40,000 bases of DNA from assembly GCA_963662675.2 (NCBI GenBank), contig CAXXHP010000004.1:510094-550093 (forward strand), in the 5' to 3' direction. Shown piece after piece: positions 5,518-31,885 of the stretch. Every line of letters starts with the position of its first letter. Position 1 is the stretch's first letter. Position numbers and translations under genes: made by a program. The notes below the pieces were generated by a model, which saw nothing but the letters and a program-made list of their open reading frames with translations, was not told where the DNA came from and did not search any database. This DNA comes from Prolixibacteraceae bacterium. GTDB lineage: Bacteria; Bacteroidota; Bacteroidia; Bacteroidales; Prolixibacteraceae.

Positions 5518-5617
5518 AATGTGTCATTTACAACGCTAATTTATTGGAAACGACACATTTTGTTACATATATAGAAAATATAATGTGCATAAATGTCCCA
5601 CTACACCTACGTTAGGT
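5518..5617 (+). other. attI-like / first recombination site of the array
   Basis: GTTAGGT at 5611-5617 preceded by ...cccactacacctac, like the L'/R' end of the attC sites. The following nt (GTTAGGTGGC) are the reverse complement of GCCACCTAAC at 7040-7049. Inverted repeat AATGTGTC 5518-5525 / GACACATT 5552-5559 lies just after the recombinase stop. Confidence 0.55.
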
Positions 5618-5684
5618 GGCATTTAAAAAAACTCTCCACTTGATGAAAATTAGATATGATTTATTGAATTAGATAAAATACAAT

Positions 5685-6344
5685 ATGAAAAAATTTATAG
5701 AATTTGAAATAAGAAATTCAGAAACAAAGCTCATTGAGCTATTGAATTTGCTTAAATCGTCGGAAACAAATAAATGGAAATTTGAAAAAAAATTGACAAA
5801 AGATTATGCCTCGAATATTTCGCTTGCGGAAGAAAATGTTGCCTGTTTTAAAGCAAATTCCACAAAGTATTTTGAAGCAACAATATGGATTGTAATAAAT
5901 GACAGTGTTTTAAAGGTCTCAAATATAGTATCAAGGAAAGTTCCCTACTTAGGAAAAGATATTTACAATCTCATTGTAACTGATTTTCACAAAGAATACG
6001 TGAGTAAATATATCACTAAAGAATATGACATTAATCTAACTTCGAATGAGGTAACAATAGAAGAAATTGCGAATAAAGAAACTGCTGACAAACTTAAAAA
6101 GTGGGAATCACTTTGTAATCGCTCGACTGGAAATTCTCATCCTTATGATAGAGAACGTTGGTTTGAATTTATCAAAACTGCTGTTGATACTAACTCTGAG
6201 TTAATGGTTGGTGATTTGGAACAATGGTTGACAGAAGAAAAAAATTGGTTTGTCGATGAAGAAAATAGTGTAACTGAGAGAATTGTTCTTGATTTTGAAT
6301 ATGGTATTGATTTATTGAAATATTATGTTGGAAAAAGTAACTAA
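5685..6344 (+). CDS. hypothetical protein (cassette 1, gene 1)
   Basis: 219-aa ORF that overlaps the next ORF by 20 nt. No motif I recognise. Confidence 0.6.
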   Translation: MKKFIEFEIRNSETKLIELLNLLKSSETNKWKFEKKLTKDYASNISLAEENVACFKANSTKYFEATIWIVINDSVLKVSNIVSRKVPYLGKDIYNLIVTDFHKEYVSKYITKEYDINLTSNEVTIEEIANKETADKLKKWESLCNRSTGNSHPYDRERWFEFIKTAVDTNSELMVGDLEQWLTEEKNWFVDEENSVTERIVLDFEYGIDLLKYYVGKSN

Positions 6345-7035
6345 GAAATCAGTAGAAAAATTTATTTCTCAATTAGAGGTTCCAGAACCTGTCTTTCTTT
6401 TTTGGGATACTTGTAGTTTGCTTGATATTATTCGCTTACCGTTCAGAACTAATTCAAAAAGACACTTAGATTTTTATCAACGAATTAAAACACTAATTGA
6501 CGAAGGTCAAATTATCTCAGTTGCTTCTGAGCTGACAATAGCCGAACTTGGTTATAACTTTCAAAAGGTTGAGCTTGAATATGATAATTACTTAAAGAAA
6601 CTGCAAAGAGATTTTAATCTTCACCAAGACTATCTAATACAATGCAATAATATAGATGAACCAATTCTTCCTTTTACATTAAGTGAAAAAGGACTAAAAC
6701 AGTATTTACTTAAATTGTTTAATGAAATAGTTTCAAAAACAACCTTTATTTCGGAGAAACAGGCATTTAATAAGTTTGCGCATTTTAGGGTTTCTTATCA
6801 TATGGCTCCTGCTCAAAAGAAAGGTGAATATAAAGATTGTTATATCTGGGCAACTTGCTTAGAGTTAGCAAAAGAGACTCCCGAAAATAGTCAAATCTAT
6901 TTTTTCACAAGAAATAAAGATGACTTCTTTGAAAATGGAAATTTATTTGAATTAATTGAAAATGATTGTAATAACACTGCAATTGACATTAAATATGAAG
7001 TTGGAGACTTATTGGGTGATATCCTGAATAATTAA
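6325..7035 (+). CDS. PIN-like domain protein (cassette 1, gene 2)
   Basis: 236 aa. Acidic residues are spaced as in PIN-like nucleases: FLFWDTCSLLD near the N-terminus, SELTIAE, KDCYIWATCLE, FFTRNKDDF. Assignment is from motif pattern only. Confidence 0.5.
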   Translation: MLEKVTKKSVEKFISQLEVPEPVFLFWDTCSLLDIIRLPFRTNSKRHLDFYQRIKTLIDEGQIISVASELTIAELGYNFQKVELEYDNYLKKLQRDFNLHQDYLIQCNNIDEPILPFTLSEKGLKQYLLKLFNEIVSKTTFISEKQAFNKFAHFRVSYHMAPAQKKGEYKDCYIWATCLELAKETPENSQIYFFTRNKDDFFENGNLFELIENDCNNTAIDIKYEVGDLLGDILNN

Positions 7036-7039
7036 AAAC

Positions 7040-7233
7040 GCCACCTAACAAAGTGTCATATGTAATGCGGGTTTCAGCGGTTTTTTAGGCTGCGGCACGT
7101 TGTTGCAACACCGCCAATTCGTCTTTGACGATTTGACGTAAAAATTGAAATACTGAATAAACGAATTGGCTACGTGCGTAATTGAAAGTTTCGTACTTTT
7201 AATCCCGCACTACACATACACAAACCGTTATGG
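7040..7233 (+). other. attC site 1
   Basis: R'' GCCACCTAAC 7040-7049. Arms aaagtgtcatatgtaatgcggg / cccgcactacacatacacaaacc. R' GTTATGG 7227-7233. Unusually long (194 bp) with an extra inner hairpin gccaattcgt...acgaattggc. Confidence 0.8.
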
Positions 7234-7260
7234 GCAAGGTTGAAAAAAGCAAAATAATGA

Positions 7261-8019
7261 ATGGACACCTTTGATTTAATTATATCGATAATTTTTATAA
7301 TTGGGATTGGATTAGTCCTTTATTTGATTTTGCGCAACCCAGTTTACATGTTCAAGACTTTTCTACGTGGACTAAAATCTCATCCCAATTGGGCTGTAAA
7401 AATTGTTTTCTCACCTATTTGGTTACCAGCCTGGTTAATTGACAGAATCTTTGGACTCAAATTATTCATTGAGGAATTTGAGGACGCTTCAAAACCAACT
7501 AAAATTTCATTCTCTGAATATGACAAGTACATATTCGTTAACTCGGCAAATTTAGTGCACATTGAGAAAGTGTTACATTCATTTGAAAGTGATTTCGACC
7601 CGACTGAGTTTAATTACCGATTGAATGGTTGTAAAATAAAAACATCTGAGTTCGGAGAAAATTTGATTTTAAAACTGGAAGGCGAAATTGAATTTAAAAG
7701 TTTCAATAGCCTTGTTCATTATCTTGACAATTCAGCTCCCAAAGACAAAGTTTACAATGTGAAAGGGATTTTGATTAATAAAAATACTAAGCCAGATTCC
7801 TATTTCATTTTTAACGACACTGCATTCACATTGAAGTTGATTGGAAAAACATATAAAAACAAAAAAATGTATGTTGACATCAATCCAGAAACTGAATTAA
7901 ATGACACGATTTTCTTTAATTCAAATATGGATTATTTTAAAAATTTCGACTTTGACAAATTTAATAATGAGATATATAGATTAAAATTAAAAGAATTGAA
8001 ATTAAAACCCAGCCCATAA
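7261..8019 (+). CDS. membrane-anchored hypothetical protein (cassette 2)
   Basis: 252-aa ORF with hydrophobic N-terminal segments (IISIIFIIGIGLVLYLIL; VFSPIWLPAWLI). The TAA stop (8017-8019) lies inside the R'' box CCATAAC. Confidence 0.6.
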   Translation: MDTFDLIISIIFIIGIGLVLYLILRNPVYMFKTFLRGLKSHPNWAVKIVFSPIWLPAWLIDRIFGLKLFIEEFEDASKPTKISFSEYDKYIFVNSANLVHIEKVLHSFESDFDPTEFNYRLNGCKIKTSEFGENLILKLEGEIEFKSFNSLVHYLDNSAPKDKVYNVKGILINKNTKPDSYFIFNDTAFTLKLIGKTYKNKKMYVDINPETELNDTIFFNSNMDYFKNFDFDKFNNEIYRLKLKELKLKPSP

Positions 8020-8146
8020 CAAATTGTAAATTGCATTGCGGGGTTCGTAGTGTGTCGTTCGCTGGATTCTCGTTTCGCAGTTCAGTCCTATCGGACATGA
8101 ACGCTCTTTGAAATCCGCAACGACAACTTACAAGTGACCGTTATGT
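8012..8146 (+). other. attC site 2
   Basis: R'' GCCCATAAC 8012-8020 (reverse complement of GTTATGGGC 7227-7235). Arms TTGTAAATTGCATTGCGG / CCGCAACGACAACTTACAA. R' GTTATGT 8140-8146. 135 bp. Confidence 0.85.
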
Positions 8147-8755
8147 TTCATTTAGAAAAAAGAGATTTTAAAATAAAAATTGCCATTATTTGTAAACGCA
8201 AGCTTTCTACTTTACATTTAAATAACTATTTTTAAAATCACAATTTAATTACTGAAACCCCCAACACACTAGGATAATATGAAAAGGTTTGTGCAGTTGA
8301 TTTTATCTAAAACGTTGGTCATTGTCTAAGTTCTTTGACTGGAATACGAAAATCGATACTTAAAAGCAGCCTAAAAAAGAATGGTTGGGGCAGATCTCGG
8401 TTTGTAAATAAAGTGCAGTCCGAAAACGAATTTCCAAAAACAGCTCTCCCACTCTTTAGTATCTGCTAACGGAATGATGAACAGCATTCTGAAACTAAGT
8501 CAATTCAGGCTGATTGATTTCTAAAATTGCCAAAGTTCAATAAAAAAAGTAGTTGCTCTCTAAGATGGTCAGCATTACAAAAATACGTTCTGAAAAGAAT
8601 ACAGAACCAGCATACATAAAAAACGAAAACATAACATATTGTCATATGGCAGGCGGGCGCTTTAGCGGTTTGACTAGTCAAACCAGTATTGCAACGTCCT
8701 TCCGGTCTGACAGGATTTCTTTGGGAAATCCCGCCCGACCACATACAAGTAACCG
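8141..8755 (+). other. ORF-less cassette 3 (615 bp)
   Basis: Bounded by G|TTATGTTT (8140) and attC3 ending G (8755). The only ORFs of 60 aa or more overlap the attC palindrome. Confidence 0.7.
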
Positions 8756-8761
8756 TTGGCG
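8627..8761 (+). other. attC site 3
   Basis: R'' AAACATAAC 8627-8635 (reverse complement of GTTATGTTT 8140-8148). Arms tatggcaggcgggcg / cccgcccgaccacata. R' GTTGGCG 8755-8761. 135 bp. Confidence 0.85.
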
Positions 8762-8862
8762 GTAATGTGAAAAAAGCCGAAAACGATTACAACAAGGCAA
8801 GATTTGACTAAAATTATCGGCTAAATACTATGGAACTTTGCATAAATCAAAAACAGATAATT

Positions 8863-17882: not shown

Positions 17883-18004
17883 ACGCGGTATAGCCAATAA
17901 GGGTTTAAGTGGTATGCGAAAGGTTGTAGCCCGCTTCAACTTTTCGTGTAACTTGACAGGAAATTGCCCGCATTTCCTTACTGGCCATACCGCCAACGTT
18001 AGCC
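17883..18004 (+). other. attC site 8, right part (left part 15933-15939; split by intron copy 2)
   Basis: Rejoined R'' ACCGCTAAC is the reverse complement of GTTAGCGGT at 15111-15119. Ends ...ccataccgccaacGTTAGCC (R' 17998-18004). Closely related to attC7. Confidence 0.8.
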
Positions 18005-18027
18005 ACAATTAACAAAACCAATTCCTA

Positions 18028-18771
18028 ATGAAAGACACTAAAAAATCATATCGTAATGAAGAATGGTATCGATTTGCTAATAGTGTAAAGAAAAGAGATG
18101 GATATAAATGTACAAAATGTGGAAGAAAAGAACCAGAAGTAATATTACAAGTACACCACACAGAATATAAGAAAGGCTTAGAGCCTTGGGAATATCCTCT
18201 AAGTAATTGTATAACTGTATGTAAAGGATGTCACGCAAGAGAACATAACTTAATAGAACCGAGTAGAGGTTGGACATTAATATCAATTGAAGATTTAGAA
18301 GGTCTATATGGAGTATGTGAAAGAAAAGGTTGTGGAAGTGAAATTAGATATGAACACATAATATATCACCCTCAATGGGGATATAAATCGGTAGGTAGTA
18401 CTTGCGTTGAGTACTTAACTCAAGAAGAACAAGAATTAAGTAAAGATATTTTAAAAGTATTCAAAAAGATAAATGATTTTGTTAGTAGTTCATATTGGGA
18501 AAATGGAATAACAAAGAAAGGAAATAGCTTTATCACAACGACTCATTCTCATAATATTATTAGAATATACGGAAAAGAAAAATATTATTCTTTTCAAATT
18601 GCACTTAAAGAAAAAGGAAAAAAATGGTATGATTGGGAAAAACCGATTAAAGCCTATAATAAAGATTTGTCAACAGTTAAAGAACTAAGTTATATCGTAT
18701 TGAAAGGATTAACAAGTTATGACAATGAGGAAGTGGAAATTTTAAGAAATATATATAAGAAAATGATATAA
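18028..18771 (+). CDS. HNH endonuclease domain protein (cassette 9)
   Basis: 247 aa. N-terminal CTKCGRKEPEVILQVHHTEYKKGLEPWEYPLSNCITVCKGCHAREHN (CxxC...HH...N...CxxCHxxH). The C-terminal ~170 aa is unassigned. Confidence 0.7.
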   Translation: MKDTKKSYRNEEWYRFANSVKKRDGYKCTKCGRKEPEVILQVHHTEYKKGLEPWEYPLSNCITVCKGCHAREHNLIEPSRGWTLISIEDLEGLYGVCERKGCGSEIRYEHIIYHPQWGYKSVGSTCVEYLTQEEQELSKDILKVFKKINDFVSSSYWENGITKKGNSFITTTHSHNIIRIYGKEKYYSFQIALKEKGKKWYDWEKPIKAYNKDLSTVKELSYIVLKGLTSYDNEEVEILRNIYKKMI

Positions 18772-18781
18772 ACTGTGGCTA

Positions 18782-20754: not shown

Positions 20755-20879
20755 AATGGCTCATAGGCAATGGCGGGTGGATGCTCGGTTCGCAGGTCGG
20801 ATTCCCGCACTGACTTTTGTGTCGTACCGACAGAAAGTCGCACGCAATCCGCCACTGCCCATAGCCGAGACCGTTATGT
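20755..20879 (+). other. attC site 9, right part (left part 18775-18781; split by intron copy 3)
   Basis: Arms ggcaatggcgggtgg / ccgccactgcccatagcc. R' GTTATGT 20873-20879. GTGGCTAA is the reverse complement of TTAGCCAC at 17999-18006. Confidence 0.8.
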
Positions 20880-21494
20880 TTCATTGTGTAAACAGCAGGC
20901 TAAAAACAGTCACAATTACTGTATCTTTTAAAGGATGCTAAAATGTTTTTTGAAAACCTTGGGGTTAAAAAAAATGCTGAACGCATTTTGGTTTCAGGTC
21001 TTGGAACGGTAGGACCGTGGAAGCTTGCTTCTGACGTCTGATCGACGAAAAGACCTGTCAAAGTTCCCATTTTTGTGGGACAAAGTCAAGGGGTGTAAAA
21101 ATGGAAGGACTTTTAACCCCAATTTTTCAAACAATTTTATCTTGGAAGTGATTGAAAATTTCAAGACCAAATAATGAAAAGCCTTCGGCTTTGTTGATGA
21201 AAAAATAAAATTTTCAATGGCCATCATCCATTAACGTACAGACAATCCATTCGACTATCCTTATACCAGTATAAAGTGAATAGATGGATCTTAAAGTGAC
21301 TGTTTAAAGAAAGGCCTGTTTTCACAACGCCGTTGGTTAAATAAAAAATGATAAATTTAACAACATAAACATAACAATGTGCGATATACCATAGTGGGGA
21401 CAGTGCCTCCAAGGCATCTGTTTTCCGCCCGATTGTCTTTCGTCCTGCGGACGGACAATCACACGTAAAACCACTATGGTACATGCACTATACG
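20874..21494 (+). repeat. ORF-less cassette 10 (621 bp), copy B of the duplicated cassette
   Basis: Identical to 10794-11414. Sequence diverges immediately after the GTT at 21494-21496 (GTTGTAGCGC versus GTTAACGAAC). Confidence 0.9.
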
Positions 21495-21500
21495 TTGTAG
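21367..21500 (+). other. attC site 10 (identical to attC5 up to the crossover)
   Basis: R'' AAACATAAC 21367-21375. R' GTTGTAG 21494-21500. Confidence 0.85.
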
Positions 21501-21513
21501 CGCATTAAAACAG

Positions 21514-22644
21514 ATGAGACATATAGAACAACCGAAATTAACAGAGACCTTAAAAGAGGTAATCAATCCTAAAAATGTAGCAGGAAGTGAAGCTTATAAG
21601 GTTAACACGTTTAGAGAGCTTGTCGAACATGTAGCCAAACTGGCTTATTTAAATAAAGACTATATGTTATTCTTTCGTGGACAAGGAAACGATTACAAAA
21701 ACAGGTCTGGAAATTCCAGTTTCTACCCTTCAATTTATAGAGGAGATTACTTGTCACAAGCAGAACTGAATTATAGATTTGATATACTTAATAAGTCCTC
21801 GAAAAATTTAGCTAAAATATTTGAGGAGGAACAGATTGAAGGATATAGTGAATTGAAAAGAAAGAAGTTGATTCAATGGAGTATTCTTCAACATTATGAA
21901 GTGTGTGGTACGCCATTAATGGATTTTACCCAATCACTTAGAGTTGCTTGTTCTTTTGCTCACATGGACAATGAAAATGGTAATGCATACATTTTTGTAT
22001 TTGGTTTACCATATTTGACAAATAGAATATCAACAAATTCGGAACAAGACCTATTAACAATTAGGCTTTTGAGTATTTGTCCACCAGAAGCTCTAAGACC
22101 ATATTTTCAAGAGGGGTATTTAACAGCAACGGAAGACATAACGAACGAGTATGAATCTAAAACAGAACTTGATTTTAAAAATAGGTTGATTGCAAAATTT
22201 GAAATACCTAAGACTGAGAGTTTTTGGGGCGAAGATTTCAAGATAATTCCCAAAAGTGCACTTTACCCAGACAATGATAAAGTTTTAGAAATATGCAGTA
22301 GAATAAAAGATATATCAGAAAAAGAATTATCGCCGGGTCAATTAGGTGAATTTCTATCAATTTGGTCAGAATTAGAAGAATATCTATTGAGTAATATTCA
22401 AAAACAGAATAGTCGGATTTTCAATATGAGAGAAGTTATTAATATACTCTTTAAAGAGGAAATCTTGAATCAAGATGAGTTATATCGATTCGATAGATTG
22501 CGTAAATTTAGGAATGAAGTTGTTCATAAACCCAGTAAAGTTGACTCATCACTTATTCATGAGTTTACAGAGGACTTGAAAATATTAAAAAATGAATTAA
22601 TAACGCGCTACAATCGAATAGCCCGCCCCGCTAGCAAATACTAG
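21514..22644 (+). CDS. FRG-domain protein (cassette 11), C-terminus read through into the intron
   Basis: 376 aa. MLFFRGQGNDYKN...FYPSIYRG matches the eponymous FRG motif. The last 10 codons (from 22615; IARPASKY and stop) are encoded by intron copy 4 sequence. Confidence 0.6.
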   Translation: MRHIEQPKLTETLKEVINPKNVAGSEAYKVNTFRELVEHVAKLAYLNKDYMLFFRGQGNDYKNRSGNSSFYPSIYRGDYLSQAELNYRFDILNKSSKNLAKIFEEEQIEGYSELKRKKLIQWSILQHYEVCGTPLMDFTQSLRVACSFAHMDNENGNAYIFVFGLPYLTNRISTNSEQDLLTIRLLSICPPEALRPYFQEGYLTATEDITNEYESKTELDFKNRLIAKFEIPKTESFWGEDFKIIPKSALYPDNDKVLEICSRIKDISEKELSPGQLGEFLSIWSELEEYLLSNIQKQNSRIFNMREVINILFKEEILNQDELYRFDRLRKFRNEVVHKPSKVDSSLIHEFTEDLKILKNELITRYNRIARPASKY

Positions 22645-24555
22645 CAGGGAGAGGCTTTCACACCACCATACGTACGGGTCTCGTATACGGCGGTTCGTTA
22701 AGTCATAGGAAACAAAACCGTACTTGGTTTTACTTGATTGTAGAGTTCCAGTAAAGAAACGTAACCACGCAATTTCAATCTATCAACCGTAATGGTAGTA
22801 CCCAGAATTGGGCTTTGTGCAATTGCCCATCCACCCATTCTGGAACGACTCCATGCATAGGCTTGACCCTGTTCAACGCCCAAACGAATCAGGTTCTTCC
22901 TTTTTCGCTCAGGCTTTTTCCAGTGGTGCCAAATGCAATAGCGAAGTCGGTTCCGCAGCCACCCATCCAGTTCAGCCAGCTTGTTTTGGATGCTTGCCAT
23001 TCGGAAAGCATTAATCCATCCTCGCTGCACCTCGCCCAACTTTTCGATACGTTCATCAAAACTCATGGGAGTGGTTTTTCGGGTGAGGACTTTTAGCTTT
23101 TGCTTCAAGCTCGTCCAACTCTTTTCGGATACAACCAGTTGATATTTGCCCCGTTCGCCTTTCTTATAAGTTGGCACAAAGCCAAATCCTAAGCAGGTGA
23201 AATGTACAGGTCTGCGGATGCCGCTTTTCTCCCAATTGATCGTTAGTTTCAACTTGTTTTTAAGAAACTTAAAAATGGTGTTGCCAACCTTTCGGGCTGT
23301 TGTCTTCGTTTTAACGTAAATGCTAAAATCGTCGGCATAGCGGACAAAACGCAAACCTTGCCTTTCCAGTTCCCTGTCCAGTTCGTGCAATACGATGTTG
23401 GACAGTAAAGGACTTAATGGGCTGCCCTGCGGAACTCCCTTTCTGCGTTTGACCAGTTTCCCGTTTATTTGTATCGGGGAACGCAGCCATTTGCGGATAA
23501 GGCGCAAGGTTTCGCGGCAGTTGATTTTGCGGTAAAGCAGTTGCAGCAGATAGCAATGGTCTACTTCATCGAAAAAGGTTTTTAGGTCAATATCTACAAT
23601 GTATTGAAACCCTTGGTTGATGTAAGCCTGTGCTTTTAGGACTGCCTGACCAACGCTCCTGTTGGGACGGAACCCAAAACTGGAGTCTGAAAACCCAAAC
23701 TCGAAGCGTGCAGTAATTACTTGTAAAACCGCTTGTTGTAGCAGGCGGTCGGTTACGGTGGGAATACCGAGTAACCTTGTTTTCCCTTTTCCTTTTAGAA
23801 TTTCCACTCCTAAAATGGCTTGTGGCAAATACTTTCCCGAACGAACCTTGGCTGTCAGTTCTTCCTTGTCAATAGACAGGAGTTCTGACAGTTTACATAC
23901 GGGCATGCGGTCGACTCCTGCTGAACCGTGGTTCCGCTGGACTTTGTACATGGCCTGTAACAGGTTCTTTCGTGTTAGAATTTGATCAATCATTTTAGTT
24001 TCAATTCATTGTTTCCATGTCCCGCCTAACGCAAAGCTAGATCCTGCTCACGCAGAAAGCTTCTTTGCAGCATTTGGGACAACTTATCGTTCAGCCCTTC
24101 AGCTTTTCTGTGAGTCCTCTGCCTTTTCTATGACAGCTCGTTTCCAAAGCCTACTATGGCCTCTGCTGACTTCTCAACTGTCCTTGCGGAAAGTTGAGAC
24201 CTCCCCAGGTAAGAGCATCTTCCTTCCTCCAATCACTGCTGGATCTACTACGGAACGATTTTGGTATTCGTTGGACGTTACAATGATGTGCTTGCTTATC
24301 CTCGTCTCGTAGCCTCGTATCCAATTTCTGTTCGTCAGTACCGGAGTTTGCCGGTTGGCTTCCTTCACTGCATACCTCACGGTAAACCAGCTTGCCACTT
24401 GCTAACGGTTCGAAGCGTTACCTCCGCCCGTAAGGGACTTACACCCTCTGGAATAATTTCATGCTACACTTTATTGTTTAGTAAGAAAAAGTTGTACTTT
24501 ACATTCTTTTTCAAACCTTTAATAAAGTGGGCACATGCTCATGCTGGGCACACAC
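22613..24555 (-). mobile_element. group II intron copy 4 (1943 nt)
   Basis: Same ends. Inserted between GCGCTACA (22605-22612) and AAATTGTATATGG. As far as I could compare, the sequence matches copy 1. Confidence 0.9.
22698..23993 (-). CDS. group II intron reverse transcriptase/maturase
   Basis: 431-aa ORF identical to copy 1. Confidence 0.95.
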   Translation of the reverse strand: MIDQILTRKNLLQAMYKVQRNHGSAGVDRMPVCKLSELLSIDKEELTAKVRSGKYLPQAILGVEILKGKGKTRLLGIPTVTDRLLQQAVLQVITARFEFGFSDSSFGFRPNRSVGQAVLKAQAYINQGFQYIVDIDLKTFFDEVDHCYLLQLLYRKINCRETLRLIRKWLRSPIQINGKLVKRRKGVPQGSPLSPLLSNIVLHELDRELERQGLRFVRYADDFSIYVKTKTTARKVGNTIFKFLKNKLKLTINWEKSGIRRPVHFTCLGFGFVPTYKKGERGKYQLVVSEKSWTSLKQKLKVLTRKTTPMSFDERIEKLGEVQRGWINAFRMASIQNKLAELDGWLRNRLRYCIWHHWKKPERKRKNLIRLGVEQGQAYAWSRSRMGGWAIAQSPILGTTITVDRLKLRGYVSLLELYNQVKPSTVLFPMT

Positions 24556-24680
24556 AAATTGTATATGGCAGGCGGGGGTTTTAGCGGTCTGACAAGTCAG
24601 ACCTTGCGCCAACTTTCCTGCGGGTCTGACAGGATTTCTCTTCGAAATCCCGCCCGACCACATACAAGTGACCGTTATAG
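24556..24680 (+). other. attC site 11, right part (left part 22605-22612; split by intron copy 4)
   Basis: attgtatatggcaggcggggg ... cccgcccgaccacatacaagtgaccGTTATAG (R' 24674-24680). Near-homologue of attC3. Confidence 0.8.
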
Positions 24681-24698
24681 CCTATTAAACGAAAGAAC

Positions 24699-25466
24699 AT
24701 GACAGATACATTTGATAATCAAATTCCAAGTGGAAAAATATTTAAAGACAGAGCATTTTGGGTTGGAATATTTTTGGGAGGACCATTAGTTGCAGGATAT
24801 TTATTTTCTGAGAACTTTAAAACATTTGGACAACCAGAAAAAGTTAGACCAGCTTGGATAATTTCAATCATTGTAACAATATTGATTTTTGGATTTGTAT
24901 TTCTAATCCCTGAAAATATTAATATTCCTAATCAACTTATTCCTATTATTTACACTGCAATTGCATATGGATTATTTCATAAAATTCAATCGGAAAGGGC
25001 AACTCAGCATATTAACTCAGGAGGATTAATACATAGTTGGGGCAGAGTAATTGGTGTAGGTGTGATTGGATTATTAATAACAATCTTACCAATTTTTGCA
25101 ATCGCTTATACTTATGACACAGTTGAACAAGCTAATGTTACAACTAAGACCTATGGAGCAACAGTAAAACATGAAATTGATTTTGATAAAAATAATATTA
25201 CAGAAAAGGAAGTAGATTTAATTGCAGACGGTTTTATTGAAACTGGATTTTTTGACTTATCAGTTGCAAAGTATGTTTACGTTGTTAAAAATGAGAATAA
25301 ATATGAATTATATATTTCAGTAATAAGGGGAATAGAGAATGACCAAGTTGCACTTCAACCATTTATTGAATTAAGGTCGCAAATGGATGTTTACATTCCT
25401 AATATGAAAGTAGAAATGAAATTAGTTGTAGATTATATTGAAAATGTAGTAAAAACCTTGAAATAA
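24699..25466 (+). CDS. integral membrane protein, unknown function (cassette 12, gene 1)
   Basis: 255 aa with about four hydrophobic helices in the N-terminal half and a soluble C-terminal half. Confidence 0.6.
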   Translation: MTDTFDNQIPSGKIFKDRAFWVGIFLGGPLVAGYLFSENFKTFGQPEKVRPAWIISIIVTILIFGFVFLIPENINIPNQLIPIIYTAIAYGLFHKIQSERATQHINSGGLIHSWGRVIGVGVIGLLITILPIFAIAYTYDTVEQANVTTKTYGATVKHEIDFDKNNITEKEVDLIADGFIETGFFDLSVAKYVYVVKNENKYELYISVIRGIENDQVALQPFIELRSQMDVYIPNMKVEMKLVVDYIENVVKTLK

Positions 25467-25867
25467 TGAATTTTAGAGCATCATTTTGTGACCCATTCAA
25501 GTCTGACATTATAGAAATGGGCGACTTTGAAAAGGATAAAATAATGGAAACTTTTGAAAAAATTCCATGGAACAAACTTCTTGATGAAATGAAGACGAAA
25601 AAAGAAAGTGAAATACACTACTCGCCTTCATTAGAAATTGAGAATAAGGACAACAAAAATGGACTTTCTGTTTCTGCGGTTGATGGAAAAGAATGGTACA
25701 TCTTTTTTAAAAGACCCAAAATGGTTAAGAAATTTTTCGGATTATCTGAAAAAATGAATAATGATTATTTGACAGATATAAAGGGGCAAACTGAAAATGA
25801 TGTTAAGGAGTGTTTGACCGCTTTAATTAATAATGACTTGGAATTTCTAGAAAGAAAGATAAAATAA
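25466..25867 (+). CDS. hypothetical protein (cassette 12, gene 2)
   Basis: 133 aa. TAATG stop/start overlap with the upstream ORF suggests translational coupling. Confidence 0.55.
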   Translation: MNFRASFCDPFKSDIIEMGDFEKDKIMETFEKIPWNKLLDEMKTKKESEIHYSPSLEIENKDNKNGLSVSAVDGKEWYIFFKRPKMVKKFFGLSEKMNNDYLTDIKGQTENDVKECLTALINNDLEFLERKIK

Positions 25868-25876
25868 CAGGCTATA

Positions 25877-27819
25877 ATCGAATAGCCCGCCCCGCTAGCA
25901 AATACTAGCAGGGAGAGGCTTTCACACCACCATACGTACGGGTCTCGTATACGGCGGTTCGTTAAGTCATAGGAAACAAAACCGTACTTGGTTTTACTTG
26001 ATTGTAGAGTTCCAGTAAAGAAACGTAACCACGCAATTTCAATCTATCAACCGTAATGGTAGTACCCAGAATTGGGCTTTGTGCAATTGCCCATCCACCC
26101 ATTCTGGAACGACTCCATGCATAGGCTTGACCCTGTTCAACGCCCAAACGAATCAGGTTCTTCCTTTTTCGCTCAGGCTTTTTCCAGTGGTGCCAAATGC
26201 AATAGCGAAGTCGGTTCCGCAGCCACCCATCCAGTTCAGCCAGCTTGTTTTGGATGCTTGCCATTCGGAAAGCATTAATCCATCCTCGCTGCACCTCGCC
26301 CAACTTTTCGATACGTTCATCAAAACTCATGGGAGTGGTTTTTCGGGTGAGGACTTTTAGCTTTTGCTTCAAGCTCGTCCAACTCTTTTCGGATACAACC
26401 AGTTGATATTTGCCCCGTTCGCCTTTCTTATAAGTTGGCACAAAGCCAAATCCTAAGCAGGTGAAATGTACAGGTCTGCGGATGCCGCTTTTCTCCCAAT
26501 TGATCGTTAGTTTCAACTTGTTTTTAAGAAACTTAAAAATGGTGTTGCCAACCTTTCGGGCTGTTGTCTTCGTTTTAACGTAAATGCTAAAATCGTCGGC
26601 ATAGCGGACAAAACGCAAACCTTGCCTTTCCAGTTCCCTGTCCAGTTCGTGCAATACGATGTTGGACAGTAAAGGACTTAATGGGCTGCCCTGCGGAACT
26701 CCCTTTCTGCGTTTGACCAGTTTCCCGTTTATTTGTATCGGGGAACGCAGCCATTTGCGGATAAGGCGCAAGGTTTCGCGGCAGTTGATTTTGCGGTAAA
26801 GCAGTTGCAGCAGATAGCAATGGTCTACTTCATCGAAAAAGGTTTTTAGGTCAATATCTACAATGTATTGAAACCCTTGGTTGATGTAAGCCTGTGCTTT
26901 TAGGACTGCCTGACCAACGCTCCTGTTGGGACGGAACCCAAAACTGGAGTCTGAAAACCCAAACTCGAAGCGTGCAGTAATTACTTGTAAAACCGCTTGT
27001 TGTAGCAGGCGGTCGGTTACGGTGGGAATACCGAGTAACCTTGTTTTCCCTTTTCCTTTTAGAATTTCCACTCCTAAAATGGCTTGTGGCAAATACTTTC
27101 CCGAACGAACCTTGGCTGTCAGTTCTTCCTTGTCAATAGACAGGAGTTCTGACAGTTTACATACGGGCATGCGGTCGACTCCTGCTGAACCGTGGTTCCG
27201 CTGGACTTTGTACATGGCCTGTAACAGGTTCTTTCGTGTTAGAATTTGATCAATCATTTTAGTTTCAATTCATTGTTTCCATGTCCCGCCTAACGCAAAG
27301 CTAGATCCTGCTCACGCAGAAAGCTTCTTTGCAGCATTTGGGACAACTTATCGTTCAGCCCTTCAGCTTTTCTGTGAGTCCTCTGCCTTTTCTATGACAG
27401 CTCGTTTCCAAAGCCTACTATGGCCTCTGCTGACTTCTCAACTGTCCTTGCGGAAAGTTGAGACCTCCCCAGGTAAGAGCATCTTCCTTCCTCCAATCAC
27501 TGCTGGATCTACTACGGAACGATTTTGGTATTCGTTGGACGTTACAATGATGTGCTTGCTTATCCTCGTCTCGTAGCCTCGTATCCAATTTCTGTTCGTC
27601 AGTACCGGGGTTTGCCGGTTGGCTTCCTTCACTGCATACCTCACGGTAAACCAGCTTGCCACTTGCTAATGCTTCCAAGCGTTACCTTGGCGCATAAGGG
27701 ACTTACACCCTCTGGAATAATTTCATGCTACACTTTATTGTTTAATAAGAAAAAGTTGTACTTTACATTCTTTTTCAAACCTTTAATAAAGTGGGCACAT
27801 GCTCATGCTGGGCACACAC
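25877..27819 (-). mobile_element. group II intron copy 5 (1943 nt; domain I variant B)
   Basis: Same ends. Inserted between GGCTATA (25870-25876) and ACAGTACATATTG; rejoining gives GGCTATAAC. Standard domain V, but the same domain I substitutions as copy 3. Confidence 0.9.
25962..27257 (-). CDS. group II intron reverse transcriptase/maturase
   Basis: 431-aa ORF identical to copy 1. Confidence 0.95.
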   Translation of the reverse strand: MIDQILTRKNLLQAMYKVQRNHGSAGVDRMPVCKLSELLSIDKEELTAKVRSGKYLPQAILGVEILKGKGKTRLLGIPTVTDRLLQQAVLQVITARFEFGFSDSSFGFRPNRSVGQAVLKAQAYINQGFQYIVDIDLKTFFDEVDHCYLLQLLYRKINCRETLRLIRKWLRSPIQINGKLVKRRKGVPQGSPLSPLLSNIVLHELDRELERQGLRFVRYADDFSIYVKTKTTARKVGNTIFKFLKNKLKLTINWEKSGIRRPVHFTCLGFGFVPTYKKGERGKYQLVVSEKSWTSLKQKLKVLTRKTTPMSFDERIEKLGEVQRGWINAFRMASIQNKLAELDGWLRNRLRYCIWHHWKKPERKRKNLIRLGVEQGQAYAWSRSRMGGWAIAQSPILGTTITVDRLKLRGYVSLLELYNQVKPSTVLFPMT

Positions 27820-27945
27820 ACAGTACATATTGCAGGGCGGGGTTCGGTGGTACGCCAATTGCGGATTCTCGTTTCGCAGTTCCTTGTCCTTCGGACAGGA
27901 AAGCTCTCCGAAATCCGCCCCGACAACATGTACCAACCGTTGGGC
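27820..27945 (+). other. attC site 12, right part (left part 25870-25876; split by intron copy 5)
   Basis: Arms attgcagggcgggg / ccgccccgacaacatgtacc. R' GTTGGGC 27939-27945. The central region resembles attC2. Confidence 0.8.
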
Positions 27946-28062
27946 GTCATTCAAAAAAAGACCTGCGATTACCCAATCAAAAATCTAAATATGAAATTTA
28001 TTTGCAAATATTGATTTATGACGTATCTTTGCCAAAGAATTAAATTTGTAAAAAACGAGACG

Positions 28063-29394
28063 ATGTTAATAGAATTCAATATAGAAAATTTTCTTTCTTT
28101 TAAAGACTTAACAACCCTATCAATGGTTGGAGCTAAGTCATTTAAAGAGCATCAAGAAAGTAATATTACAGAAAGGTGTAAGAATATTAGCTTACTGAAA
28201 TCTGCAATAATTTACGGGAACAATGCTAGTGGTAAGAGTAATTTGCTTGAGGCAATGGGATTTATGAAAGCTACTGTTCTAAATTCCTTCAGAGATGCTT
28301 TAATGGAAAATGGAGAGAGGTCGTTTCCTTTAGAAAAATTTGCCTTAAATACAGAAACTGAAAAAGAAACTAGCTATTTTGAAATTTCTTTTATAAATAA
28401 TGACATCAAATACCGCTACGGCTTTGAAATTGACTATGATAAAATTGTAGCTGAATGGCTTTTTCATACAACTACTAAAGAGGTTTATCTTTTTAAAAGA
28501 GACCATCAGAATATTGAGATAAATAAGTCATCTTTCAAGGAAGGGCTTGGTAAAGAAGAAGATGTTAAAGAAAATGTGCTTTTTTTATCATTACTTGCAA
28601 CACTTGGTAAAGAAACTTCAACAAGTATTGTTGATTGGTTCAAAAGTTTCAAATTTGTGAATGGGATTCACGACCGTGGACACAAACGATTTACTATTGA
28701 TAAACTTAAATCGGATGAACAATTTAATAATTGGGTATTACATTTTATCAAGTATTTGGAAATTTCAAACCTTTCTACAACTGAAGAAGATGTTAATGAT
28801 ATTGACTTTGAAACTCTGAAGACTAAAGAGAAAGACGAAGAGTTTATAAATCTTTTAACGAGTATTCAAAAAATTCAATCCAAACAACCAAAACGAGACC
28901 AGTTGATTACATATCATCGTAAGTATGATGAAAACAATGTACTAGTAGATACCGTTCCTTTTAATTTTGACAAACAAGAGTCTGAGGGAACTAAAAAACT
29001 ACTTTATTTATTAGGGCCTTGGTATGATGCATTGAAAAATGGGAAAGTATTAATAATTGACGAACTTGATTCTAGATTACACAGTCACTTAACTCTTAGA
29101 CTTATTGATTTCTTCCATAAGTTTAATCAAAATAATGCTCAATTAATATGTGCTGTACATGATATTTCATTGCTCAACAAAGAGACATTTAGAAGAGACC
29201 AAATTTGGTTTGTAGAAAAAAATCAATTCGGAGCATCTGAACTATTTTCACTTGGAAATTTTAAAACTGATAAAGTAAGAAGCAAATCAGCATTTGACAA
29301 AAATTATTTAGAAGGGAAATATGGGGCAATTCCTTATTTTAATATTGATGAAAAATTAACTCAATTACTCTATGGGAAAAGGGAAGCAGAATAA
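28063..29394 (+). CDS. AAA/ABC-type ATPase (AAA_15/AAA_21-like) (cassette 13, gene 1)
   Basis: The ATG at 28063 gives MLIEFNIENFLSFKD. Walker A GNNASGKSN, Walker B VLIIDELDSRLH, H-loop-like LICAVHD. The ORF track start at 28018 adds 15 unlikely residues. Confidence 0.75.
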   Translation: MLIEFNIENFLSFKDLTTLSMVGAKSFKEHQESNITERCKNISLLKSAIIYGNNASGKSNLLEAMGFMKATVLNSFRDALMENGERSFPLEKFALNTETEKETSYFEISFINNDIKYRYGFEIDYDKIVAEWLFHTTTKEVYLFKRDHQNIEINKSSFKEGLGKEEDVKENVLFLSLLATLGKETSTSIVDWFKSFKFVNGIHDRGHKRFTIDKLKSDEQFNNWVLHFIKYLEISNLSTTEEDVNDIDFETLKTKEKDEEFINLLTSIQKIQSKQPKRDQLITYHRKYDENNVLVDTVPFNFDKQESEGTKKLLYLLGPWYDALKNGKVLIIDELDSRLHSHLTLRLIDFFHKFNQNNAQLICAVHDISLLNKETFRRDQIWFVEKNQFGASELFSLGNFKTDKVRSKSAFDKNYLEGKYGAIPYFNIDEKLTQLLYGKREAE

Positions 29395-29812
29395 ATTTAA
29401 GTCAAGAAGTGCTGCTTCATACAAAAGAGAAGTAAAGAACACTGAGTTAAGGCAAGGTAGAAAAGAACCTTTAATAGTACTAAGTTTGAAAGATTTTGAT
29501 AGAAATCAAGGTCAGTCTTTCAAGGATTGGGAAATTGATGAACTTTTAGCATTGGCTATTAGTAAATTACACGAAGTCTGTCAGTTGACTGTTGGGCAAG
29601 CAACAGCCCAGCAAATTATTAAACCTTACACTAAAGTTGGTTTTCCTCCAGCTTCTGGATTTGTTCATCCGAAACATATTTTGCCAGATGTAATTTGGTG
29701 TTCTATGCACATTCAAGGAAAAGAATGTGTTATTGGATATTTTGAAGAAAACATTTTCTATCTAGTTTTTCTGGACAAAGAACATGAATTCTGGATATCC
29801 AAGAAAAGATAA
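29372..29812 (+). CDS. hypothetical protein, partner of the ATPase (cassette 13, gene 2)
   Basis: 146 aa. Overlaps the ATPase ORF by 23 nt. Basic N-terminus. No motif recognised. Confidence 0.55.
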   Translation: MGKGKQNKFKSRSAASYKREVKNTELRQGRKEPLIVLSLKDFDRNQGQSFKDWEIDELLALAISKLHEVCQLTVGQATAQQIIKPYTKVGFPPASGFVHPKHILPDVIWCSMHIQGKECVIGYFEENIFYLVFLDKEHEFWISKKR

Positions 29813-29826
29813 AGAACGAACGCCCA

Positions 29827-31848
29827 ATCGAATAGCCCGCCCCGCTAGCAAATACTAGCAGGGAGAGGCTTTCACACCACCATACGTACGCGAGCTATGC
29901 TCCTTCCTTTCGCTTTACTCAGGAACATATACGGCGGTTCGTTAAGTCATAGGAAACAAAACCGTACTTGGTTTTACTTGATTGTAGAGTTCCAGTAAAG
30001 AAACGTAACCACGCAATTTCAATCTATCAGCCGTAATGGTAGTACCCAGAATTGGGCTTTGTGCAATTGCCCATCCACCCATTCTGGAACGACTCCATGC
30101 ATAGGCTTGACCCTGTTCAACGCCCAAACGAATCAGGTTCTTCCTTTTTCGCTCAGGCTTTTTCCAGTGGTGCCAAATGCAATAGCGAAGTCGGTTCCGC
30201 AGCCACCCGTCCAGTTCAGCCAGCTTGTTTTGGATGCTTGCCATTCGGAAAGCATTAATCCATCCTCGCTGCACCTCGCCCAACTTTTCGATACGTTCAT
30301 CAAAACTCATGGGAGTGGTTTTTCGGGTGAGGACTTTTAGCTTTTGCTTCAAGCTCGTCCAACTCTTTTCGGATACAACCAGTTGATATTTGCCCCGTTC
30401 GCCTTTCTTATAAGTTGGCACAAAGCCAAATCCTAAGCAGGTGAAATGTACAGGTCTGCGGATGCCGCTTTTCTCCCAATTGATCGTTAGTTTCAACTTG
30501 TTTTTAAGAAACTTAAAAATGGTGTTGCCAACCTTTCGGGCTGTTGTCTTCGTTTTAACGTAAATGCTAAAATCGTCGGCATAGCGGACAAAACGCAAAC
30601 CTTGCCTTTCCAGTTCCCTGTCCAGTTCGTGCAATACGATGTTGGACAGTAAAGGACTTAATGGGCTGCCCTGCGGAACTCCCTTTCTGCGTTTGACCAG
30701 TTTCCCGTTTATTTGTATCGGGGAACGCAGCTATTTGCGGATAAGGCGCAAGGTTTCGCGGCAGTTGATTTTGCGGTAAAGCAGTTGCAGCAGATAGCAA
30801 TGGTCTACTTCATCGAAAAAGGTTTTTAGGTCAATATCTACAATGTATTGAAACCCTTGGTTGATGTAAGCCTGTGCTTTTAGGACTGCCTGACCAACGC
30901 TCCTGTTGGGACGGAACCCAAAACTGGAGTCTGAAAACCCAAACTCGAAGCGTGCAGTAATTACTTGTAAAACCGCTTGTTGTAGCAGGCGGTCGGTTAC
31001 GGTGGGAATACCGAGTAACCTTGTTTTCCCTTTTCCTTTTAGAATTTCCACTCCTAAAATGGCTTGTGGCAAATACTTTCCCGAACGAACCTTGGCTGTC
31101 AGTTCTTCCTTGTCAATAGACAGGAGTTCTGACAGTTTACATACGGGCATGCGGTCGACTCCTGCTGAACCGTGGTTCCGCTGGACTTTGTACATGGCCT
31201 GTAACAGGTTCTTTCGTGTTAGAATTTGATCAATCATTTTAGTTTCAATTCATTGTTTCCATGTCCCGCCTAACGCAAAGCTAGAATCGTAACCGATAGT
31301 TTCTTTGCAGCATTTGGGACAACGCATCGTTCAGCCCTTCAGCTTTTCTGTGAGTCCTCTGCCTTTTCGATGACAGCTCGTTTCCAAAGCCTACTATGGC
31401 TTCTGCTGACTTCTCAACTGTCCTTGCGGAAAGTTGAGACCTCCCCAGGTAAGAGCATCTTCCTTCCTCCAATCACTGCTGAATCTACTACAAAACGATT
31501 TTGGTATTCGTTGGACGTTACAATGATGTGCTTGCTTATCCGCGTTTCGTAGCCTCGTATCCCACCGCTTCGCTTTTCATTTCGTCAAATGTCCCCCGGA
31601 CATTTGGTTTTACTAACGTAAAACTTTACTCCATTCACTGTTCGTCAGTACCAGAGTTTGCCGGTTGGCTTCCTTCACTGCATACCTCACGGTAAACCAG
31701 CTTGCCACTTGCTAACGGTTCGAAGCGTTACCTCCGCCCGTAAGGGACTTACACCCTCTGGAATAATTTCATGCTACACTTTATTGTTTAGTAAGGAAAA
31801 GTTGTATTTTTCATTCTTTTAAAAACATTGAAAAAAGTGGGTACACAC
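29827..31848 (-). mobile_element. group II intron copy 6, decayed (about 2022 nt)
   Basis: Same 3' end and the domain V apex variant (29890-29927). Scattered substitutions, a ~75-nt replacement/insertion around 31562-31636, and a 17-nt deletion at the 5' end (gtgggtacacac versus gtgggcacatgctcatgctgggcacacac). Confidence 0.85.
29942..31237 (-). pseudogene. group II intron RT/maturase pseudogene
   Basis: TGG to TAG nonsense change (complement of 30731-30733; C to T at 30732 on the + strand) splits the ORF into 168-aa and 230-aa pieces. There are additional missense changes. Confidence 0.9.
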
Positions 31849-31885
31849 AACAGCGTATAAGGCGAGCGGACAAGGACATCCTTGA
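31849..31885 (+). other. attC site 13 remnant (R''/L'' side only), distal end of the array
   Basis: ACGCCCAA (29820-29827) is the reverse complement of TTGGGCGT at 27940-27947. After the intron, aacagcgtataaggcgagcgg resembles other L'' arms. No matching L'/R' (...accGTT) is found in the next ~250 bp. Confidence 0.5.

Follow-up and report, generated by a model that had tools for sequence, protein, structure and literature searches.

In sedentary chromosomal integrons such as the Vibrio cholerae superintegron (integrase IntIA, VCR sites), co-oriented, mostly promoterless and functionally unrelated gene cassettes are joined at attC sites of uniform length (~130 nt). Each site has the order R''(..AAC)-L''...L'-R'(GTT..), forms a bottom-strand hairpin with an unpaired central spacer and a variable terminal structure, and is crossed over at G|TT, and each cassette start is complementary to the distal end of its own cassette. 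The cargo includes defence genes and small reverse-oriented pairs of open reading frames (ORFs), and attI lies beside the integrase gene. These features recur in an array of 13 cassettes at positions 5518-31885 of a 40,000-nucleotide stretch of DNA from Prolixibacteraceae bacterium (assembly GCA_963662675.2, contig CAXXHP010000004.1, positions 510,094-550,093 of the forward strand), hereafter called the window. In contrast to the V. cholerae superintegron, the recombinase encoded next to this array lacks the I2 helix of integron integrases, the sites have no conserved extrahelical bases and carry two G·T wobbles, the integrase gene lies upstream in the same orientation as the cassettes with attI after its stop codon, most members of the recombinase family have an additional N-terminal domain, and the host belongs to the Bacteroidota. 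The locus is a sedentary chromosomal, integron-like platform that belongs to a distinct, Bacteroidota-wide lineage, present on chromosomes and plasmids, with an IntI/Xer-like recombinase without I2.

The I2 helix, in which K219 and Y220 are located, is held to be necessary for cassette capture, to confer single-strand recombination and to occur in no other protein (PMC7790495); it is seen as the innovation that enabled single-strand attC recombination and as unique to IntI (PMC7790495, PMC9668308). The standard integron detection tool requires the IntI-specific domain, and Cury et al. judged tyrosine recombinases without this domain near attC sites, which were scattered and had fewer than three sites, not to be IntI (PMC4889954). 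IntegronFinder 2.0 yielded one complete Bacteroidetes integron, in Salinibacter (PMC9024848), while a 2024 preprint placed Bacteroidota among the clades previously without integrons (10.1101/2024.07.02.601686). Smyshlyaev et al. described the insertion as 'not fully conserved' in a subgroup of integron-like recombinases and made no link to arrays (PMC8138268). No description of an I2-less Bacteroidota cassette platform was found in the full-text literature, a search in which subscription journals were thinly covered and an earlier description is possible. A Bacteroides paper that uses 'integron' loosely for restriction-modification islands was not relevant.

In the 'inverted' integron of Treponema denticola (Spirochaetota), intI and the cassettes are on the same strand. 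In archaeal integrons, as in the window, attI lies immediately downstream of intI (PMC9668308); unlike the recombinase in the window, the integrases of archaeal and Treponema integrons carry the IntI-specific additional domain (PMC9668308). An I2-less, Xer-type enzyme is known to act on a folded single strand in the case of XerCD and the single-stranded DNA of CTX-phi and other Xer-exploiting elements (PMC7790495), so that hairpin substrates need no I2 in principle. CTX-phi differs from the present system in that it mimics double-stranded dif, relies on two host housekeeping recombinases and has no array, dedicated recombinase or attI. The pdif sites of Acinetobacter plasmids are ~28-bp, double-stranded, dif-like sites in alternating orientation that are used by the host XerC/XerD, without 130-nt hairpins, attI, a dedicated recombinase or a permutation signature. 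They resemble the array in the window in that gene modules are bounded by Xer-type recombinase sites (PMC7399989).

Results

Cassette Boundaries and the Circular-Permutation Signature

In all 13 cassettes, the start is complementary to the distal box of the same cassette. Measured outward from the GTT and AAC triplets, contiguous complementarity of own ends was 9-10 nt in 13/13 cassettes, as compared with 3-6 nt (mean 4.0) between a cassette start and the physically adjacent box and a mean of 4.05 for non-cognate combinations of starts and boxes. Since the chance of such an own-end match, with six free positions each, is ~2.4e-4 per cassette, 13 matches out of 13 are far beyond chance. An integron-type array with a circular-permutation signature had previously been proposed from 12 GTT/AAC pairs in a reading of the window made without database searches (the sequence-only reading). 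Each of the 24 strings in these pairs was found at exactly its listed position, the signature was upheld, and a 13th pair, GTTAACGAAC at 11414 with GTTCGTTAAC at 11558, fills a gap in the earlier list. Such own-end matching would be expected if units leave as circles and re-insert at G|TT.

The cassette at 10793-11413 (cassette 5) is an exact copy of that at 20873-21493 (cassette 10), with 621 of 621 bases shared and identity stopping at the GTT triplets. The conserved bases at the boundaries are GTTR, a C that always precedes GTT and an A that always follows AAC; the R' motif GTTRRRY, as it had been proposed, is complete in only 3 of the 13 R' boxes. At the array end, the last site (after 31846) consists of a proximal half without an R' box. 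Outside the 9-10 nt R'' box, 55 aligned sites have an A-rich tract and a conserved (A/C)C at positions -21 to -10 from the C of AAC. Cassette starts read GTTRNNNNN[C/A]A[T/G], and these flanks are not complementary to the A-rich/(A/C)C flanks. The R box GTTATGTTT/AAACATAAC of cassette 3 also occurs in the unrelated cassettes 5 and 10.

Hairpin Structure of the attC-Like Sites

The boundaries had been described as imperfect palindromes of about 131-135 bp, with one of 194 bp. Among the seven contiguous sites, five are indeed 131-133 nt long, the long one measures 191 nt rather than 194 nt, and a further one spans 286 nt. In the other six, the AAC box is split as ...A|AC by a group II intron of 1.94-2.02 kb. 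These introns were not mentioned in the sequence-only reading, whose strings at the six sites lack the final C because the intron splits A|AC.

When the two arms of the bottom strand are folded, AAC pairs with GTT and is followed by an asymmetric unpaired spacer (5-6 nt in the 5' arm and 3 nt in the 3' arm), an L stem of ~18 bp with two conserved G·T wobbles, and a variable central region that closes the fold. The sites therefore show the features of attC: imperfect inverted repeats R''(..AAC)/R'(GTT..) that fold on the bottom strand into a hairpin of R box, unpaired spacer, L box and variable terminus. Bottom-strand hairpins with paired R and L boxes, as anticipated by the earlier reading, were thus found; extrahelical bases, which it had suggested scoring, were not conserved. 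Spacer indels shift columns and hence made a plain MAFFT alignment of the sites poor: RNAalifold recovered 6 pairs only, and a column-wise Nussinov analysis of a bottom-strand MAFFT alignment also failed. A covariance model was therefore seeded with four indel-free sites and a hand-derived structure and then iterated. With filters off, the four-site model recovered five window sites outside the training set (E 1e-7 to 4e-5), all on the minus strand, and gave nothing better than E=0.39 elsewhere in the window.

In the alignment of nine window sites, 100% of pair cells were standard pairs and 13 of 21 pairs had changed on both sides; sliding the partner by 1-3 columns reduced pairing to 31-52%. 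For 57 sites of other genomes, 96.5% of pair cells were paired, compensatory changes occurred in 18/18 stem pairs, and the covariation score was 0.665, against 0.153 for shuffles and at most 0.10 for slid partners. The two bottom-strand G·T wobbles were present in 46/57 and 55/57 of these sites and in 9/9 and 6/9 of the window sites, while their top-strand equivalents are A·C mismatches. The bottom strand was the more stably folding one in 10 of 11 window sites and 47 of 57 others (p=5e-8). The core of AAC-A on one side and C-GTT on the other was invariant (55/55). No conserved extrahelical base was detected, with a 3'-arm bulge in 3 and a 5'-arm T bulge in 16 of the 57 sites. On the R''-side arm, the distance of the wobble T's from the R box is ~10-11 and 15-16 nt, and that of canonical extrahelical bases is given as ~9 and 16 nt (PMC7439510); that the G·T wobbles are counterparts of the latter is speculation.

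Site length depended on lineage (Rufibacter 67 nt; Chryseolinea 81-168 nt; Marinilabiliales ~131 or 190 nt; Ekhidna ~232 nt). A long form of 188-196 nt occurred in several genomes, with a conserved inner arm GCCAATTCGT...ACGAATTGGC, in co-varying versions, inside the variable region. It is represented by 7043-7233 in the window and, in other loci, by L013 11661-11849, 14459-14647 and 18913-19101, L024 14830-15020 and 16945-17137, L031 17969-18164, and L037 6406-6593. The recurrence of this form with its inner arm suggests a second conserved size class with a branched structure.

An Adjacent Recombinase Without the I2 Helix

Directly upstream of the array and co-oriented with the cassettes, an intact ORF (4384-5517, plus strand) encodes a tyrosine recombinase of 377 aa, in which an N-terminal alpha/beta domain (aa 1-72) precedes the core-binding and catalytic domains (Pfam Phage_integrase and Phage_int_SAM_4). 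Its score with NF040815 ('site-specific tyrosine recombinase/integron integrase') was barely above cutoff (222.7 versus 220), whereas that with the integron integrase model TIGR02249 was below cutoff (198.8 versus 265) and aligned in two stretches. Scores with the Xer models were 195.6 for XerD (cutoff 329.6) and 191.3 for XerC (cutoff 335). By sequence and fold, the closest solved relative was VchIntIA (2a3v), narrowly ahead of archaeal XerA; a structure model with a predicted local distance difference test score (pLDDT) of 84.8 also had 2a3v as its best fold match in the PDB.

In the alignment to VchIntIA, query residues 292-296 face residues 199-243 of the chain, with three residues of the query opposite 43 of VchIntIA. 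An IntI1 reference sequence, confirmed to be 100% identical to annotated intI1, was used to locate this gap: IntI1 residues ~190-222, including ALERKYP with K219/Y220, and 11 further residues (~42 in total) are missing in 7/7 members of the family. In each of the 31 matched loci, 67 aa separate the K motif from the H motif, as compared with 109 aa in IntI1. The columns corresponding to the catalytic residues R146, K171/K174, H277, R280, H303 and Y312 of IntI1 are invariant. Because the region of K219/Y220 is missing across the family, the feature that defines IntI is absent, and by its predicted protein sequence the recombinase has no IntI-specific additional domain (I2 helix).

The N-terminal domain (window 4384-4600), modelled with a pLDDT of ~90, is conserved in most Bacteroidota members and occurs twice in a homologue from Pontibacter (L061). 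attI and arrays also accompany short forms that lack the domain (L027, L031, L039, L079), so it is not required for array association. It had no significant fold match; the weak best matches (E ~0.2) were the damage-recognition domain of XPB and the HARP domain of SMARCAL1. Both recognise branched or damaged DNA, and the resemblance is a lead only.

attI and Recurrence in Other Genomes

The interval from the recombinase stop codon to the first GTT (5518-5613, plus strand; crossover triplet 5611-5613) constitutes an attI-like site ending in ...CCCACTACACCTAC|GTTAGGTGGC. Over 31 loci, the attI consensus was TACACATAC|GTTR, ~85-100 nt past the stop codon (~90 nt in the window), with an ATAA(C) motif and a palindrome of 6-8 bp, whose sequence differs between lineages, upstream of it. 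The reverse complement of the attI GTT plus the next 6 nt was identical to the R'' of the first cassette in the window and in 13 of 17 other loci, against a chance expectation of ~0.04 per locus. This recurrence indicates that the attI GTT is the insertion point of the first cassette. Together with the folds, their pairing and the adjacent recombinase, it upholds the previously proposed anatomy, in which cassettes bounded by R''-L''...L'-R' sites are crossed over at G|TT.

The recombinase has many homologues in Bacteroidota, of which those from Sunxiuqinia and Draconibacterium, the nearest that carry a name, share ~70% identity with it. A set of 80 genome loci, oriented on the recombinase gene, was searched with a second-generation site model. 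At E<1e-3, this search yielded 58 matches, spread over 21 loci. None shared the strand of the recombinase gene, and 57 of them were downstream of it, though more upstream sequence was searched. The only upstream match is a long-form site (L024 7954-8145) in array orientation, 1.9 kb before a Marinifilum recombinase gene.

The own-end signature was also found in Draconibacterium (10/10), Marinifilum, Chryseolinea and others. When cassettes were followed from attI by exact 9-mer own-end complementarity only, without the site model, chains of 15 cassettes were obtained in Chryseolinea (L058), 11 in Draconibacterium (L013), 11 in an Ekhidna locus without any site-model match (L077), 8 in Marinifilum (L024), 7 each in Rufibacter (L067) and a second Ekhidna locus (L070), and 5 each in L018 and L020; mirror-image controls gave 0-3. 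A Parabacteroides locus (L044) has attI and a three-cassette chain. With filters off, the site model gave no match in L001 or in the Parabacteroides, Bacteroides and Phocaeicola loci L033, L035 and L043.

Two plasmids, a 66-kb Chryseobacterium plasmid (L081, NZ_CP041688.1, 11956-22081) and a 15.4-kb Chondrinema plasmid (L082, NZ_CP111070.1, 6870-12219), carry versions in which the recombinase gene is accompanied by small genes in the same orientation, by sites that the model detected and by a group II intron in antisense. On the Chondrinema plasmid, the recombinase gene is the sole gene annotated as integrase or recombinase. The interior of the Chryseobacterium array also contains IS110 and other transposases.

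Many assemblies end 0.1-1.3 kb past the recombinase gene (L003, L004, L006, L008, L010, L017, L022, L025 and others), and the contig of L006 ends right at the GTTA of attI. Such breaks are what repeated sites and introns would cause, and arrays are probably under-represented in draft and metagenome-derived genomes. Short-form recombinases with attI and arrays were seen in bins labelled outside the Bacteroidota, namely L027 (Candidatus Sabulitectum), L020 (Chlorobiales), L079 (Actinomycetes) and L031; the system may extend to other FCB-group phyla, or these bins may be mis-assigned. Metagenome scans for the attI sequence and for relatives of the cassette 5 ORFs gave no matches.

Group II Introns in the Sites

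Six group II introns, 97.4-100% identical to one another, are located on the minus strand, and all are inserted at the same point, in the bottom strand of R'' between GT and T (top strand RYYYA|AC). Cassettes 7, 8, 9, 11, 12 and 13 are occupied, and cassettes 1-6 and 10 are free. When the introns were removed, the reconstructed sites folded like the rest. The ribozyme matched Rfam RF02001 (125.7 bits) and RF01998 (49.5 bits). The intron-encoded protein (IEP, 431 aa) contains RVT_1 and GIIM only, without an endonuclease domain, and scored 355.8 bits with TIGR04416 (cutoff 300).

Copy 1 (13051-14991, 1941 nt; IEP 13136-14431) has the ends 5'-GTGTGCCC...TTCGAT-3'. Copies 2 (15940-17880, 1941 nt; IEP 16025-17320) and 4 (22613-24553, 1941 nt; IEP 22698-23993) are 99.7% and 100% identical to it, respectively; copy 5 lies at 25877-27817 (1941 nt; IEP 25962-27257). 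Copy 3 (18782-20752, 1971 nt; IEP 18897-20192) has a 30-nt insertion near its 3' end. Copy 6 (29827-31846, 2020 nt) is degenerate, with an IEP broken into 29942-30634 and 30731-31237, a 70-nt ribozyme insertion and a 5' end that is 17 nt shorter than that of the other copies. The 30-nt insertion of copies 3 and 6 lies within a 3'-proximal hairpin (3' ends near 13090 and 18825), possibly distal domain V. The first 17 nt of copies 1-5, GTGTGCCCAGCATGAGC.., are an extension in which the 5' end of copy 6, GTGTACCCAC.., is repeated in part (near 14975-14991 and 31830-31846).

Group IIC-attC introns target the bottom strand of attC, where they lie between gene and attC in antisense orientation relative to the cassettes (PMC3001079). 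The introns of the window resemble this type, as represented by S.ma.I2 of class 1 integrons, in bottom-strand attC insertion, antisense orientation, an IEP with reverse transcriptase and maturase domains, and a 5' exon that ends in (T/G)TGT; they differ in that six copies in one array of 13 cassettes are unusually dense. By insertion site and IEP domains they match the group IIC-attC type, kinship of the IEP being given here by a tblastn ranking only. In that ranking against a plasmid collection, the closest IEPs were from Bacteroidota (62-69%) and then Firmicutes (43-47%), and none of the 15 listed was enterobacterial. An identical intron end was found in attC sites of L005 and L012, and related introns are present in the plasmid arrays; occupation of these other arrays indicates an intron lineage specialised on such sites. 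Specialisation of group II introns on attC hairpins would thereby be seen for a second time, independently of the first. With each R'' box cut off from its hairpin, cassettes 7-9 and 11-13 should be locked in place. From the distribution of the introns, the proximal cassettes, including cassette 5 as a copy of cassette 10, may have been inserted at attI after the intron burst.

Cassette Content and Chromosomal Setting

Among the cassettes, all of which are on the plus strand, are phage-defence-like genes (AbiLi-like, FRG/HepT, HNH and PIN), small enzymes, regulators, a pair of small reverse-oriented ORFs and several ORFs without a family match. This cargo is typical of chromosomal integrons. 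Cassette 1 (5611-7226) carries ORFs at 5685-6344 (no family match) and 6325-7035 (PIN_12) and ends in the long-form site (7043-7233, 191 nt; site model E=3.4e-10), with own-end complementarity of 10 nt. Cassette 2 (7227-8139) carries an ORF at 7261-8019 (252 aa, no family match) and a site of 133 nt (8014-8146). No convincing ORF is present in cassette 3 (8140-8754; site 8629-8761, 133 nt). A 79-aa ORF at 8505-8744 on its minus strand was rejected as a gene; it is a translation of attC, and its tblastn matches lie on attC sites of L012 and L013. Cassette 4 (8755-10792) encodes an NmrA-like reductase (8830-9726) and an AraC-type regulator (9741-10652), followed by a site of 131 nt (10669-10799).

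Cassette 5 (10793-11413; site 11289-11420, 132 nt) contains two small overlapping minus-strand ORFs (10914-11147 and 11144-11404) in a toxin-antitoxin-like layout, neither of which had a Pfam or NCBIfam match. Cassette 6 (11414-11839) is only 426 nt long, with R'' GTTCGTTAAC at 11558-11567 and own-end complementarity of 10 nt. Its atypical site (11561-11846, 286 nt), in which the L stem surrounds a central region of ~240 nt, was missed by both site models. A 115-aa minus-strand ORF (11415-11762), without a family match, overlaps this site and crosses the R'' box; it may be a real gene in the variable region or a chance ORF.

The intron-bearing cassettes follow, interrupted by cassette 10. Cassette 7 (11840-15110) encodes an S-adenosylmethionine (SAM) methyltransferase (11891-12514) and a GNAT acetyltransferase (12575-13051); its site is split into an R'' remnant (13046-13050) and the rest (14992-15117), with a site-model E=3.9e-07 for 14988-15117. 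Cassette 8 (15111-17997) has an ORF with a weak PLD-like match (15170-15904, 244 aa) and a site split into 15935-15939 and 17881-18004, and cassette 9 (17998-20872) an HNH-domain protein (18028-18771) and a site split into 18777-18781 and 20753-20879. The site of cassette 10 (20873-21493), the exact duplicate of cassette 5, lies at 21369-21500. In cassette 11 (21494-24673; site split into 22608-22612 and 24554-24680), an FRG and HepT-like protein (21514-22644) corresponds to the PADLOC candidate defence family PDC-S15. Cassette 12 (24674-27938; site split into 25872-25876 and 27818-27945) carries two ORFs without a family match (24699-25466 and 25466-25867). Cassette 13 (27939-31885), with own-end complementarity of 9 nt, encodes an AbiLi-like ATPase (28018-29394; Pfam AAA_21, PADLOC AbiLi 1.4e-88) and a 146-aa partner (29372-29812). 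Its R'' remnant lies at 29822-29826 and is followed, after 31846, by the proximal L'' half without R', which marks the array end; neither a site-model match nor a hairpin was found at the distal end of this site.

When all cassette proteins were compared by tblastn with 82 loci, only the AraC-type regulator was shared (41% identity), so that arrays of different genomes have essentially no common cargo. Ordinary chromosomal genes flank the array, namely those for asparagine synthetase A, an MFS transporter and tRNA-Arg(TCT) on one side and those for 2-oxoacid:ferredoxin oxidoreductase and an ECF sigma/FecR pair on the other. The tRNA-Arg gene is located 870 nt upstream of the recombinase gene. 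The earlier description of co-oriented, unrelated cargo in a sedentary chromosomal setting was upheld. Co-orientation makes read-through into the cassettes from the recombinase gene possible. Blocks of 46% G+C in an array of otherwise 30-36% are due to the group II introns. Cumulative GC skew climbs across the window flanks; if replication and not the orientation of genes is its cause, the leading-strand template would contain the sites' bottom strands, as reported for large chromosomal integrons, an indication that is too weak to rely on.

Discussion

The cassette platform in the window probably works, or did so until recently, with the adjacent I2-less recombinase acting on sites folded from the bottom strand. 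Its place and orientation next to the array, both conserved, and the architecture of the sites suggest that the recombinase (4384-5517) would bind both attI, TACACATAC|GTT, and the attC-like sites. From their pairing, covariation and strand asymmetry, the latter are predicted to act in vivo as folded bottom single strands, whose R box AAC/GTT would be extended to 9-10 bp in the free cassette. Strand exchange at G|TT, with circular excision and re-insertion at attI, would account for the permutation signature and the exact cassette duplication. Since there is neither an I2 helix nor a conserved extrahelical base, recognition must rest on other features; speculatively, site and strand might be recognised via the spacer asymmetry and the two G·T wobbles. 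Judged by their positions, the six intron copies would each have reached an R'' box by retrohoming, with GT|T of the bottom strand as the point of entry, and, by analogy with group IIC-attC introns, would immobilise cassettes 7-9 and 11-13. By anatomy and proposed mechanism the locus is an integron; by the membership criteria of the field, an IntI domain and extrahelical bases, it is not. The integron reading made from sequence alone therefore stands for the array anatomy, while the recombinase without I2 and the sites without conserved extrahelical bases mean that the integron is not canonical.

The platform could be served by the same recombinase in a different manner, with two-strand exchange on duplex DNA as in Xer/dif or attI x attI recombination and with the palindromes acting as terminators or insulation. 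We consider this unlikely. It would agree with an Xer-like architecture at the place where IntI has I2, with the view that I2 permits single-strand recombination and blocks the second strand exchange (PMC7790495), and with the small perfect palindrome of attI, which suits a dimer on duplex DNA. However, a purely double-stranded reaction offers no reason for an R'' box 130 nt away to keep 9-10 nt of complementarity to the cassette start, for 18 stem pairs to co-vary, or for G·T wobbles to be kept on one strand only, with A·C mismatches on the other; the three together are hard to explain in this way. Independently of the recombinase evidence, the introns use the same strand of the same hairpins, and introns of this type target single-stranded stem-loops (PMC3001079). 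A somewhat less probable scenario is that of a canonical integron remnant, in which the cassettes were moved by an I2-bearing IntI encoded elsewhere and the neighbouring gene belongs to an unrelated island or encodes an Xer-type enzyme next to tRNA-Arg. The tRNA-Arg gene, 870 nt upstream, is at the usual spot for island integrases, the XerD and XerC models score nearly as well as the IntI model, and recombinases near attC without the IntI domain have been judged not to be IntI (PMC4889954). Against it, the gene-attI-array order, with its orientation and spacing, recurs in >20 genomes of different orders and on small plasmids, by which a tRNA-linked genomic island with an unrelated integrase was also rejected. 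Moreover, in 13 of 17 loci the first cassette has its R' at the attI crossover, and on the 15.4-kb Chondrinema plasmid no second annotated integrase or recombinase is at hand. No direct repeat of the tRNA 3' end turned up at the array end, although no search was aimed at one.

That the sites and the signature are relics of a platform that no longer works is rated lower still. Interruption of 6/13 sites, truncation of the last site and degeneration of one intron would fit such decay, but the recombinase ORF is unbroken and has kept its catalytic residues (R, K, H, R, H and Y), the six proximal sites are uninterrupted and have all their pairs, the 621-nt duplicate is 100% identical, which argues for a recent event, and five introns are 99-100% identical. 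Least credible of all, to the point of being nearly dismissed, is an array of REP-like (repetitive extragenic palindromic) or terminator hairpins that are mere landing pads for a group II intron. Class C group II introns do insert after terminator-like stem-loops (PMC3001079), and 6/13 hairpins contain one; this explanation is contradicted by the circular-permutation signature, by the single orientation of the sites downstream of one recombinase family in 21 loci, and by a crossover triplet common to the sites and the conserved attI, and REP/terminator repeats were rejected on these grounds. Miniature inverted-repeat transposable elements (MITEs) were considered and rejected, as were pdif modules. 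The sites are hairpins of 67-235 nt and not dif-like cores.

Several points weigh against a working platform with an I2-less recombinase. The platform is known here from its sequence, and all published work holds I2 to be required for attC recombination. The genomes with chromosomal arrays may encode a canonical IntI elsewhere. Where homologous loci extend for 10 kb downstream, about half of them, mainly from gut Bacteroides, Phocaeicola and Parabacteroides, show no array, so that the recombinase family is not exclusively array-associated. The structure counts derive from alignments fitted to their own model and are biased towards structure; the slide control and the compensatory changes are strong despite this.

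A more far-reaching proposal, which we put forward tentatively and hold to be somewhat less likely than its opposite, is that the lineage is a previously unrecognised integron class of the Bacteroidota, and perhaps of their FCB neighbours, whose integrase never had I2 or dispensed with it and whose sites have G·T wobbles at the extrahelical positions. A complete platform without I2, with recombinase, conserved attI, long arrays and every mark in the sequence that cassettes leave by excision and re-insertion, across Bacteroidota orders and plasmids, challenges the reported near-absence of integrons in this phylum. If true, single-strand hairpin recombination of cassettes would be independent of I2, and the lineage could stand for the long-sought stage before I2, or for a separate solution, as integrons evolved from Xer-like recombinases. 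If functional, the platform would allow the need for I2 and extrahelical bases in hairpin recombination to be tested in a natural system and would be a candidate intermediate for the origin of integrons. It would also expose a blind spot in current annotation, with arrays that are probably under-assembled in metagenome-derived genomes, and would represent a large, uncatalogued reservoir of mobile cassettes, defence genes included, in a phylum of environmental and gut importance.

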